Sequence record: PZ179883.1
Length of the DNA stretch: 64,000 bases
Direction: 5' to 3' (one strand)
Source of the DNA: a phage
In this document: one piece after another, positions 3 to 4,083 of the stretch
How the letters are laid out: each line of letters starts with the position of its first letter
How positions within the stretch are numbered: the stretch's first letter is position 1
The notes under the pieces: generated by a model
Told to the model about the DNA's origin: nothing
The model's database searches: none
The model's input: the letters and a program-made list of their open reading frames with translations, nothing else
Translations under genes and position numbers: made by a program

Positions 3-662
3 GGAGAGCGTGTTCCATATAATGGTGAATACGCTCTTATCCGTGGTAATATTTCCGGTGGTGCATGGGTAGACTGGCGAGATCGTCCGGCTGGATTGTT
101 GGTAGACTGTCAGGACTCACGAAATCAAGCATATAACATTTGGAAAGCTACTCATTGGGGCGAACAGCACCTTGCGGCGATGGGTGTTCATGCTGGCGGT
201 GGTAATCCTCATGTTGTATTGCATGTGGGTGGGAATGATTATGCATTTGCATCTAACGGTGATTTTACTGCTGGTGCTGCTGTATATTGTAACGACGTTT
301 ATATTCGTTCTGACCGTCGTCTGAAAATTAATGTTGAAGACTACGAAGAAAATGCGGTGGATAAGGTAAATAAACTCAAAGTTAAAACCTATGATAAAGT
401 TAAATCTCTTTCTGACCGCGAAGTTATCGGCCATGAGATTGGTATTATCGCACAGGATTTGCAAGAAGTATTACCGGAAGCTGTTAGCACTTCTAGTGTC
501 GGATCTCAGGATAACCCAGAAGAAATTTTAACAATTTCAAACTCTGCTGTGAACGCGCTTTTAATTAAGGCCATTCAGGAAATGAGCGAAGAAATTAAAG
601 AATTGAAAACGCCTCTCTTTACTAAAATTGCTCGCAAAATTAGTAAATATTTTAAATTCTAA
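3..662 (+). CDS. 37: Long tail fibre distal subunit gp37, C-terminal fragment (5' end lies outside window)
   Basis: Frame is open from window start (ORF track starts at an internal TTG at 96); sits directly upstream of gene 38 and t as in T-even phages; C-terminal motif IGIIAQDLQEV resembles tail-fibre intramolecular chaperone domains. Confidence 0.8.
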   Translation, partial: GERVPYNGEYALIRGNISGGAWVDWRDRPAGLLVDCQDSRNQAYNIWKATHWGEQHLAAMGVHAGGGNPHVVLHVGGNDYAFASNGDFTAGAAVYCNDVYIRSDRRLKINVEDYEENAVDKVNKLKVKTYDKVKSLSDREVIGHEIGIIAQDLQEVLPEAVSTSSVGSQDNPEEILTISNSAVNALLIKAIQEMSEEIKELKTPLFTKIARKISKYFKF

Positions 663-668
663 CAACAA

Positions 669-683
669 GGGGGAAATGCCCCC
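669..683 (+). other. GC stem-loop (GGGGG-AAATG-CCCCC) between genes 37 and 38
   Basis: Perfect 5-bp G/C stem seen directly after the gene 37 stop; followed only by TTT and then the gene 38 SD, so more likely a stability/attenuation element than a full terminator. Confidence 0.4.
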
Positions 684-698
684 TTTGGAGTATAAATT

Positions 699-1481
699 AT
701 GGCAGTAGTTGGAGTTCCTGGCTGGATTGGAAGTTCAGCCGTAAATGAAACGGGCCAGCGCTGGATGAGTCAAGCAGCTGGTCAATTAAGATTGGGTGTT
801 CCTTGCTGGATGAGTCAATTTGCAGGTCGCTCAAGAGAAATTATTCATACACTTGGAGCAGACCATAACTTCAACGGTCAATGGTTCCGAGATAGGTGTT
901 TTGAGGCAGGTAGTACACCTATAGTGTTTAATATCACTGGAGATTTAGTATCATATTCTAAAGATGTTCCTTTATTCTTCATGTACGGAGATACACCGAA
1001 TGAATATGTTCAACTGAATATACACGGTGTAACGATGTATGGCCGTGGCGGGAATGGCGGTAGCAATAGTCCTGGCTCAGCTGGGGGTCATTGTATTCAA
1101 AATGATATTGGTGGGAGACTAAGAATTAATAATGGCGGAGCTATTGCTGGCGGCGGTGGCGGCGGCGGTGGCGGATATTATTCTCCTTTTTCACAAATGA
1201 GATTGACCTTTGGCGGTGGCGGCGGTCGTCCGTTTGGCGCTCCGGGCGGATCTATTGATATGCAATCAGGAGCAACTGCTGGTACTATTTCTGCGCCAGG
1301 CGCAGGGTCTGTGAACGGTATCTATAACGGCGGGTCTGGTGGTGAAGTTGGATCCGCAGGGGGTAGATGTAATATTCGTGGTCAAGGATATGAATACGAT
1401 GGCGGTGCTGCTGGTTATGCCGTCATAGGGTCTACACCGACATGGCAAAACGTTGGAGCAATATATGGTCCAAGAGTATAA
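699..1481 (+). CDS. 38: gp38 receptor-recognising tail-fibre adhesin, T2/T6 type (260 aa) with glycine-rich motifs
   Basis: SD GGAG 9 nt upstream of ATG; several poly-Gly tracts ([23 protein letters not shown]) separated by variable segments; position between 37 and t. Confidence 0.85.
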
Positions 1482-1512
1482 TTTTGAATAAATATCCTTA
1501 AAAGGAGGGTCT

Positions 1513-2169
1513 ATGGCAGCACCTAGAATATCATTTTCGCCCTCTGATATTCTGTTGGGTGTTCTAGATCGCTTGTTCAAAGATAACGCTACCGGGAATG
1601 TTCTTGCTTCCCGGGTAGCTGTCGTAATTCTTTTATTTATGATGGCGATTGTTTGGTATAGGGGAGATAGTTTCTTTGAGTACTATAAGCAATCAAAGTA
1701 TGAAACATACAGTGAAATTATTGAAAAGGAAAGAAATGCACGCTTTGAATCTGTCGCCCTGGAACAACTCCAGATAGTTCACATATCATCTGAGGCAGAC
1801 TTTAGTGCGGTGTATTCTTTCCGCCCTAAAAACTTAAACTATTTTGTTGATATTATAGCATATGAAGGAAAATTACCTTCAACAATAAGTGAAAAATCAC
1901 TTGGAGGATATCCTGTTGATAAAACTATGGATGAATATGCAGTTCATTTAAATGGACGTCATTATTATTCCGACTCAAAATTTGCTTTTTTACCAACTAA
2001 AAAGCCTACTCCCGAAATAAATTACATGTACAGTTGTCCATATTTCAATTTGGATAATATCTATGCTGGAACAATAACCATGTACTGGTATAGAAATGAT
2101 CATATAAGTAATGACCGCCTTGAATCAATATGTGCTCAGGCGGCCAGAATATTAGGAAGGGCTAAATAA
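1513..2169 (+). CDS. t: Holin T (218 aa)
   Basis: SD AAGGAGG; protein near-identical to recalled T4 holin T (MAAPRISFSPSDIL...), N-terminal TM segment, 218 aa. Confidence 0.95.
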   Translation: MAAPRISFSPSDILLGVLDRLFKDNATGNVLASRVAVVILLFMMAIVWYRGDSFFEYYKQSKYETYSEIIEKERNARFESVALEQLQIVHISSEADFSAVYSFRPKNLNYFVDIIAYEGKLPSTISEKSLGGYPVDKTMDEYAVHLNGRHYYSDSKFAFLPTKKPTPEINYMYSCPYFNLDNIYAGTITMYWYRNDHISNDRLESICAQAARILGRAK

Positions 2170-3184: not shown

Positions 3185-3464
3185 ATTGAATCACCTTCAG
3201 TTGACGTTTTAGTTCTTTTATCATTTCTTCGTTCATCGCAATATAAAGATCGCGTAAAGCAAGTTTTAGCATTCCATTTACTGGATAACTAAATGGGCAT
3301 ACATAATCTTTTCCTACGAGCTTTTTAGTGAATTCCATATCACAGAACTGAAATGCCGGTTCATTTGTATAAATTCCCCAATTAGTTGACATCATTTTAT
3401 TGGCATATTCCAACGCCTGGATTTGATTCTTAATTCCATCAATTTGAAACTTTTTAATATTCAT
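3168..3464 (-). CDS. Hypothetical protein (98 aa)
   Basis: Tightly packed ORF, stop abuts start of downstream ORF. Confidence 0.5.
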   Translation of the reverse strand: MNIKKFQIDGIKNQIQALEYANKMMSTNWGIYTNEPAFQFCDMEFTKKLVGKDYVCPFSYPVNGMLKLALRDLYIAMNEEMIKELKRQLKVIQFGQGN

Positions 3465-3931
3465 TAGTAAAGGTCCTCAGAGTAAAGTTCTTTTTCACTA
3501 CCACCACGTTCAATACGCACTTGTCCAGCGTAAGTTGCAATAATCATTGCTTCTTCACGTGTCCAGTAATTGCTATACTGGTCAATAAATCCTTGGTCTT
3601 CACCACAAACATGGTCTGATACAAGTTTATCACTTACCTGGTCAAGAACTTCAGCCATATCTTTAGAATAATGACGAGCACCAGGAATAACCAGAGTCCC
3701 ACCATCTTTTAACTTAAAGCGGTTGGCTGCACACACAATTCGACGTTGATATTTTTCATTATTGTTCCAATGAGCTACTTGCCAACAGATTTCAGGAACC
3801 TCTTCTAAAACATCCTCTTCCGTATATTCGGTGTAGTCGCCATAGGCCTGTAATTTAGCTGCTAGACTTTCTGGAGTTTCACGTAATAAAGCCAGGTCTA
3901 ATAATTCAAGACGCTCTTTGAAGGTTTTCAT
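3464..3931 (-). CDS. Hypothetical protein (155 aa)
   Basis: ORF with ATGA coupling to neighbours; no recognisable motif. Confidence 0.55.
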
Positions 3932-4083
3932 TTGGTTTCCTCAACACTTTTAATTTTTATAGCTTGTTTAGAACTTTCAAAGCATTGACAATATACTCTT
4001 ACCGCATCAAACTGGTTGGCCGCTTTAAGATGGACTACACCTTCGCCGTTATAAAATTCTACGACAATTTTAAATGTTTTCAT
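3928..4083 (-). CDS. Small hypothetical protein (51 aa), not in ORF track
   Basis: Manual translation [51 protein letters not shown]; ATGA overlaps at both ends. Confidence 0.35.

Follow-up and report, generated by a model that had tools for sequence, protein, structure and literature searches.

In phage record PZ179883.1, of which we analysed a stretch of 64,000 nucleotides (the window), an open reading frame named gene 38 lies between gene 37, for the distal subunit of the long tail fibre, and the holin gene t. The question that this locus raises is whether the product is a receptor-recognising adhesin of the T2 family, as the initial annotation had proposed, or an assembly chaperone like the gp38 of T4 and, if it is an adhesin, which receptor it would recognise. 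We conclude that positions 699-1481 encode gp38, the tail-fibre tip adhesin of a Tequatrovirus (T-even phage), of the T2/T6/S16 family, and that this protein very probably belongs to the T6-like allele class binding Tsx, a nucleoside channel in the outer membrane of E. coli. The family, the domain and motif layout, the synteny and the near-identity of the hypervariable segments to those of Tsx-dependent phages were computed here.

Gene 38 and its neighbours

The genes at this end of the window are the following:

3..662, + strand: 3' part of gene 37, for the distal subunit of the long tail fibre, with its 5' part beyond the start of the window (open frame, TAA at 660-662)
699..1481, + strand: gene 38, T2-family receptor-recognising adhesin (open reading frame, Pfam and PDB matches)
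1513..2169, + strand: gene t, holin, the downstream neighbour (Pfam Phage_holin_T, 2.9e-116)

In the list of open reading frames, the frame at 699-1481 on the + strand is translated into 260 amino acids plus a stop codon, in agreement with the length given in the initial annotation. The gene is located directly downstream of gp37 and upstream of the holin gene t. Relatives annotate the counterpart of the frame at 3..662 as gp37, and the last ~118 codons of gp37 include an intramolecular chaperone domain (Pfam Peptidase_S74, 'chaperone of endosialidase', 1.9e-15, nt 309-485). The order g37-g38-t is also found in T6, T2 and ECO07P4, and T4 likewise has a gene 38 between g37 and t.

A short G/C hairpin, GGGG(G)-loop-CCCCC, is visible in the sequence at 670..683 in the spacer between g37 and g38, and a scan for terminator-like structures reported this stem on the minus strand only. 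The hairpin is followed by a ribosome-binding site, GGAG, at 687-690. In promoter and terminator scans around g38, no signal relevant to this gene exceeded the level expected from shuffled sequence, and neither tRNA genes nor Rfam matches were detected in the 64 kb window.

The protein matches two Pfam families, for each of which the curated cut-off is 25 bits: GP38 (PF05268) with 2e-71 and 240.7 bits, covering profile positions 1-218 of 218, and Gp38_N (PF21721) with 1.2e-20 and 73.7 bits over aa 1-42. Among proteins of known structure, the receptor-binding domain of PP01 gp38 (PDB 9V85; PMC12892980) is matched over aa 38-260 at 1.3e-79, and S16 gp38 (PDB 6F45, chain D) over aa 5-257 at 4.8e-50. 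Together with the g37-g38-t order, these matches bear out the proposal of a T2-type gp38 adhesin.

Two readings that deny gene 38 an adhesin function can be weighed at this point. A T4-type gp38 would be an assembly chaperone that is not part of the virion, and receptor binding would fall to gp37; what the window gene shares with it is the name and the place between g37 and t only. Similarity to this chaperone had been set down as a finding that would count against an adhesin; the comparison was run, and the best BLASTP alignment with T4 gp38 (NP_049864, 183 aa) extends over 12 residues at E=2.0, which amounts to no similarity and led us to reject this reading. Every strong match is to an adhesin family or an adhesin structure, and gp37 in the window has an S74 chaperone domain of its own, so that a T4-type chaperone is vanishingly improbable here. 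The other reading takes the frame for a chance glycine-rich low-complexity ORF, or for a decayed gene that has lost its function. Its coding DNA is indeed GC-rich and repetitive, and in the RefSeq relative HP3 the gene is annotated as truncated within a poly-Gly tract. Against this, the frame is intact over the full length of the family. An identical 260-aa protein is present in NCBI (PJZ22119.1, representing a 155-member cluster at 90% identity), the same protein occurs on at least five independent contigs, and nine records of phages have a gp38 with at least 99% identity. Furthermore, synonymous differences exceed non-synonymous ones by about 6-11 to 1. Compared with Bas35 gp38, 82 codons differ and 13 of these alter the amino acid (45 and six, respectively, across aa 115-260), and compared with ECO07P4 gp38 a single one of the 12 differing codons does so. 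These codon comparisons indicate that gene 38 is under purifying selection. The Pfam matches, the identical proteins elsewhere and the synonymous excess thus refute a chance or decayed frame, to which we give practically no credence.

Domain and motif layout of gp38

In the scheme described for the gp38 family, five glycine-rich motifs (GRMs) separate four hypervariable segments (HVSs) (Trojet 2011, PMC3157838). We applied this scheme to an alignment of 15 proteins, comprising the window gp38 and those of T6, RB5, RB14, CM8, WilhelmHis/Bas35, FL44, PST, Ac3, M1, Ox2, AR1, T2, SV76 and ECO07P4. Segment limits were set by conservation in this alignment and are approximate within a residue or two:

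699..836, + strand: attachment domain at the N-terminus, aa 1-46 (matched by Gp38_N at aa 1-42)
837..1040, + strand: N-terminal part of the central beta-helix domain, aa 47-114 (aligned to the beta-helix of 9V85 and 6F45)
1041..1058, + strand: GRM1, GRGGNG, aa 115-120 (6/6 identical in 14/14 references)
1059..1082, + strand: HVS1, GSNSPGSA, aa 121-128 (counterpart of PP01 loop A)
1083..1133, + strand: conserved return into the beta-helix, aa 129-145 (15-17/17 in the references; 9/17 in T2 and SV76)
1134..1172, + strand: GRM2, aa 146-158 (10-13/13 identical in all references)
1173..1208, + strand: HVS2, aa 159-170 (counterpart of PP01 loop B)
1209..1235, + strand: GRM3, FGGGGGRPF, aa 171-179 (8-9/9 identical in all references)
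1236..1328, + strand: HVS3, aa 180-210 (counterparts of PP01 loops C and D, with a short Gly-rich stretch between)
1329..1364, + strand: GRM4, aa 211-222 (11-12/12 in the T6-like set, 6-7/12 elsewhere)
1365..1397, + strand: HVS4, aa 223-233, including Y231 (counterpart of PP01 loop E)
1398..1430, + strand: GRM5, aa 234-244 (10-11/11 in the T6-like set and M1; 4-8/11 in AR1, Ox2, T2 and SV76)
1431..1478, + strand: conserved C-terminal strand or strands closing the beta-helix (11-16/16 in all references)

The window gp38 therefore has the five GRMs and four HVSs in their fixed order, the GRMs being conserved in the 15 proteins and the HVSs differing by receptor class. In the attachment domain, Trp9, Trp22 and Trp37 align with the three tryptophans of S16 gp38 that dock it onto the gp37 trimer (PMC6851490), and two of the motifs that bear these tryptophans are encoded by a 32-nt internal repeat (760-791 and 805-836). 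The first part of the beta-helix domain, aa 47-114, is conserved among T6-like gp38 proteins. An exact 14-nt repeat, GGCGGTGGCGGCGG, is found in GRM2 (1152) and again in GRM3 (1212). The glycine content is 37% in aa 115-224 compared with 11% in aa 1-114, and the DNA coding for aa 115-224 has a GC content of 55% compared with 34.6% for the whole window. This glycine enrichment is not due to chance, since the same motifs are invariant across the 15 aligned gp38 proteins.

The initial annotation had described four glycine-rich motifs within 1041-1370. The four glycine strings that it quoted are all present, at aa 115-130, 146-161, 170-185 and 211-222 (nt 1041-1088, 1134-1181, 1206-1253 and 1329-1364), so that the motifs as such are real, but their number is an undercount compared with the five GRMs of the family scheme (PMC3157838) or the ten helices of the S16 structure (PMC6851490). 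The first quoted tract is not a single motif; it comprises GRM1, HVS1 (GSNSPGSA) and the next glycine stretch. The interval itself corresponds exactly to codons 115-224, but nine of the 11 residues of HVS4 and the whole of GRM5 lie beyond nt 1370, meaning that the host-range region as first delimited was truncated at its 3' end.

The polyglycine-II helices in the crystal structure of S16 gp38 number ten, and the distal loops five (PMC6851490). When the loops A-E of PP01 are transferred through the AR1 alignment, they fall on aa 121-125, 161-170, 184-190, 205-209 and 225-232 of the window protein. Loops C (184-190) and D (205-209) are thus both inside HVS3, which would supply two of the loops. 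A single-sequence AlphaFold2 model of the window gp38 had a mean pLDDT of 29 and a pTM of 0.18, too low for the model to be of use. It is from homology to 9V85 and 6F45 that we infer a polyglycine-II sandwich fold for this protein, and both the geometry of capping and the specificity for Tsx discussed below are proposed on comparable grounds.

One may propose how the adhesin works from two homologous templates of solved structure, the gp37-gp38 complex of S16 and the receptor-binding domain of PP01 gp38. According to this model, the gp37 trimer would fold with the aid of the S74 chaperone domain at its own C-terminus and later lose this domain by cleavage, and one gp38 monomer would then cap the trimer through its N-terminal helical domain, with Trp9, Trp22 and Trp37 inserting into three equivalent pockets of gp37. 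The GRMs, as polyglycine-II helices, would be packed together in a rigid sandwich projecting from the small beta-helix, and HVS1-4, displayed as five distal loops, would form the surface that touches the receptor at its extracellular loops. Once the long tail fibres have bound reversibly, the short fibres (gp12) would be able to bind the LPS core, committing the phage to infection.

Hypervariable segments and the predicted receptor

The initial annotation had placed receptor specificity in the segments between the glycine-rich motifs and had suggested typing them by alignment. Both ideas hold up: the segments vary across receptor classes, in agreement with published genetics (PMC3157838; bioRxiv 10.64898/2026.04.02.716166), and the alignment, when carried out, matched the HVS set of the window to that of Tsx-dependent phages. 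Use of Tsx has been reported for RB3, RB5, RB6, RB7, RB14, RB27 and T6 (PMC3157838) and for FL04, FL15, FL23 and FL44 (PMC12032242), and was confirmed by genetic complementation for Bas35 (PMC8594841). By RB-TnSeq, the primary receptor of CM8, JK23, Bas35, Bas36 and RB14 is Tsx and their secondary receptor is HepI (bioRxiv 10.64898/2026.04.02.716166).

HVS1 is identical (8/8) to that of T6, RB5, RB14, CM8, Bas35 and FL44, and also to that of M1 and Ac3, compared with 3/9 for T2, 2/8 for Ox2 and 1/10 for AR1. Since it is common to M1, which is OmpA-dependent, HVS1 alone does not discriminate, and this agrees with the report that exchange of gp38 from HVS2 onward turned CM8 from Tsx to OmpA (bioRxiv 10.64898/2026.04.02.716166). 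HVS2 matches RB5, RB14, CM8, Bas35 and FL44 at 12/12 positions and T6 at 11/12, as against 0/12 for T2 and AR1, 3/12 for Ox2 and 3/15 for M1. For HVS3 the counts are 30/31 with RB5, 29/31 with CM8, Bas35 and FL44, and 27/31 with T6; the other classes reach 5/32 (T2), 7/33 (Ox2 and AR1) and 14/33 (M1). HVS4 is identical at 10/11 positions to every typed Tsx binder, the sole difference being Y231, where these carry a serine, compared with 2/11 for T2 and M1, 0/13 for Ox2 and 3/11 for AR1.

Across aa 159-233, spanning HVS2 to HVS4, the identity is therefore 91-96% to T6, RB5, RB14, CM8, Bas35 and FL44, 87% to PST, 62% to Ac3 and 46% to M1, and it decreases to 29% for T2, 30% for Ox2 and 32% for AR1, with SV76 within 29-32%. 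The classes of T2 (FadL/OmpF), Ox2/M1 (OmpA) and AR1/PP01 (OmpC) were rejected on this basis, their HVS2-HVS4 being dissimilar to those of the window (29-46% for T2, Ox2, M1 and AR1). The label 'T2-type' is thus right as the name of the family, but the allele is T6-like (92% identical to T6 over the whole protein, and 29% to T2 across HVS2-HVS4). FL44 differs in its attachment domain (24/46 identical) and has the same HVS set and the same dependence on Tsx, which indicates that the HVS set tracks the receptor and not the genomic backbone. At the level of the protein, the 'hypervariable' domain is strongly conserved in the Tsx class, and its segments vary between receptor classes and not within one.

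A megablast search with nt 1041-1370 found 128 records with a coverage of 80% or more, and for the majority of these the identity is 87-98%. Lower-ranked records, of other receptor classes, match over the first ~134 nt only and stop at ~nt 1174, at GRM2, and this break is a mosaic breakpoint. Because HVS1-4 are near-identical to those of experimentally Tsx-dependent phages, we predict from the alignment that Tsx is the primary receptor. In part of the supplement of the receptor-prediction preprint (bioRxiv 10.64898/2026.04.02.716166), peptides of this gp38 were sought and gave no predictive k-mers.

An adhesin of the same family and fold might also have a shifted or broadened specificity, for instance through an added dependence on OmpA, or for a receptor of Yersinia or one specific variant of Tsx. 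Such a shift would come from residues of the allele's own: Y231 in HVS4, A194, A199 and A202 in HVS3, and S213 in GRM4. Y231 is the only loop residue absent from all the experimentally typed Tsx binders that we aligned, and it maps to the counterpart of loop E, whose Tyr230 in PP01 cross-links to OmpC (PMC12892980). One to three substitutions are documented to alter receptor use in the gp38 family: Q206L turned RB51/RB68 from OmpF to OmpW (bioRxiv 10.64898/2026.04.02.716166), and PST, which uses both Tsx and OmpA and infects Yersinia, differs from T6 by Q167R, M168I and G208I in T6 numbering (PMC3157838). Plating of T6-like adhesins on Yersinia at low frequency is also documented, and the phage collection has the Yersinia phage ZN18 as the nearest relative at the whole-genome level (98.1% over 20 kb). 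However, instead of the PST-type substitutions the window shows the residues of T6 and RB5, namely Q166, M167 and G207, and it has no insertion like the 18-aa duplication of HVS2 and GRM3 in the related Yersinia phage PYps47T; the gp38 match in ZN18 is ~51 nt longer than the window gene. In addition, A194, A199 and A202 are present in Tsx-dependent RB5 too, and HVS2 is fully identical to that of five Tsx binders. We therefore regard a shifted or broadened specificity as improbable, and recognition of Tsx by a T6-like allele as the preferred reading.

Within that Tsx class, one may still speculate on a role for Y231, which is shared with ECO07P4, UGKSEcP1/2, L14 and HP3.1. According to this speculation, which we consider a long shot, the change from serine to tyrosine at 231 on RB5-like loops might retune the adhesin and create a functionally distinct sub-allele. 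If so, the retuning could be directed, for example, toward the Tsx variant of a non-K-12 E. coli, of E. fergusonii or of Shigella, or could provide an additional receptor.

Comparison with known gp38 proteins

The identification of this gp38 is correct but ordinary and already known, since the exact protein is in NCBI and structures of the family, its modular genetics and sequence-based receptor predictors are published. Its value is practical only: a prediction of Tsx as receptor, combined with a secondary receptor in the LPS core that would be read by gp12 encoded elsewhere in the genome, may be of use in the design of phage cocktails and in foreseeing resistance by loss of tsx, and adds nothing conceptually new. 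At the nucleotide level, the nearest phage records are 98.1-98.5% identical over 20 kb, and among the contigs that have the identical protein the best match to the window is 98.4% over 4.5 kb (NJNO01000007.1).

The gp38 proteins of UGKSEcP1/2, ECO07P4/P5, LF73P3 and vB_SsoM_113 are 99.2-99.6% identical to that of the window and the gp38 of L14 is 98.8% identical, corresponding to one to three substitutions in each. UGKSEcP1/2 and L14 are the same as the window protein over aa 74-260, that is the whole receptor-binding domain including Y231, and their substitutions are all outside the specificity region; the single difference of ECO07P4, A199S, is in HVS3. A literature search found no receptor data for UGKSEcP1/2, L14, ECO07P4, vB_SsoM_113, YUEEL01, LF73P3 or OES_C-1, and the paper on LF73_P3 deals with defence systems only.

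Among typed phages, the closest are RB5, RB3, RB6, RB7, RB9 and RB10 (Tequatrovirus RB3; Tsx-dependent), whose gp38, like that of the window, has 260 aa and is 98.1% identical, with the same N-terminal attachment domain and the same g37-g38-t context. The changes from the window to RB5 are A14S, T73A, N210S, S213G and Y231S, of which only N210 and Y231 are in HVSs. CM8 (96.9%) and Bas35 (95.0%) are slightly more distant. The gp38 of T6, the archetypal Tsx adhesin, is 92% identical (241/261) and has the same layout of GRMs and HVSs; about half of its 20 differences, among them one residue inserted in T6, are in aa 52-114, and four are in HVS3.

Outside the Tsx class, the gp38 of PP01 (9V85, OmpC) and of S16 (6F45, Salmonella OmpC) belong to the same family with all GRMs conserved, and by homology the window protein would share their three-domain architecture, in which an attachment domain and a beta-helix are combined with a polyglycine-II sandwich that carries the distal loops. 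Their distal loops, in contrast, are unrelated to those of the window when compared through AR1, a close relative of PP01, and they recognise a different receptor. In the same way, the gp38 of T2 (FadL/OmpF) has the Pfam family, the motif order and the genomic position in common with the window gene, whereas its identity is 49% overall and 29% across HVS2-HVS4, and BLASTP aligns the first 147 residues only.

Tryptophan motifs of the attachment domain

The attachment domain of gp38 (the tail-fibre adhesin encoded at 699-1481, plus strand) occupies aa 1-46 and carries three tryptophans, Trp9, Trp22 and Trp37, that by homology dock onto the gp37 trimer. Two of the three Trp-bearing motifs, each of 11 aa, are encoded by a 32-nt imperfect direct repeat (760-791 and 805-836; 78% identity, 45 nt apart), which suggests that the pseudo-threefold docking module of gp38 originated by internal duplication. 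In the gp38 of Shigella phage CM8 (locus L010), the third conserved tryptophan is replaced by leucine (W37L in the window numbering). Despite this substitution in its gp38 record, CM8 is infective and experimentally Tsx-dependent. Therefore, either at least one of the three tryptophan anchors is dispensable, or the CM8 record is in error.

Anomalous database records of gp38

The RefSeq gp38 of Escherichia phage HP3 (NC_041919, protein P0009) is annotated at 187 aa, agreeing with the window protein as far as the poly-Gly run of the second glycine-rich motif (GRM2) and running out of frame beyond it. The loss of frame reflects either a sequencing error at the homopolymer or a real frameshift within the GGN repeat. 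The gp38 of HP3.1 is intact, at 260 aa.

A protein identical to the window gp38 (699-1478) was deposited in NCBI as 'receptor-recognizing protein [Bacillus cereus]' (PJZ22119.1). It is encoded on a 171.5-kb contig, NJNO01000007.1 (locus L017, GCA_002811445.1), whose synteny is that of a T-even phage: gp37, gp38, t, asiA, arn, motA. This looks like contamination or mislabelling, with a coliphage-type genome residing within a Bacillus assembly. The window is 98.4% identical to this contig over 4.5 kb, and the two are therefore not the same sequence.

Small reading frames

Approximately 250 nt of the window (3821-4070) have no counterpart in ECO07P4, a phage with a near-identical gp38, or in the metagenome contig L015, both of which align on each flank. 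This segment is a small indel carrying an ORF. The reading frames concerned, together with one opposite gene 38, are:

3464-3931, arn.3-like ORF, on one flank of the segment
3928-4083, minus strand, 51-aa ORF within or overlapping the segment
4080-4409, arn.4-like ORF, on the other flank
1266-1580, minus strand, 104-aa antisense ORF overlapping the 3' half of gene 38

For the antisense ORF, the simplest account is that it arises as a by-product of the GC-rich stretch of glycine codons.

Repeats around HVS2 and longer adhesins in Yersinia phages

Two copies of an exact 14-nt repeat, GGCGGTGGCGGCGG (1152-1165 and 1212-1225), flank the second hypervariable segment (HVS2), lying within the coding DNA of GRM2 and GRM3. 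The gp38 of Yersinia phage PYps47T (protein P0012) is of the same allele with an added 18-aa tandem duplication, and the duplicated unit is exactly the segment that this repeat bounds in the window gp38. Such a duplication would provide the PYps47T protein with an extra loop. The gp38 match in another Yersinia phage, ZN18, is likewise longer, by about 51 nt. The lengthening in both phages looks like the product of unequal exchange between the repeated glycine codons and may have a connection with growth on Yersinia.
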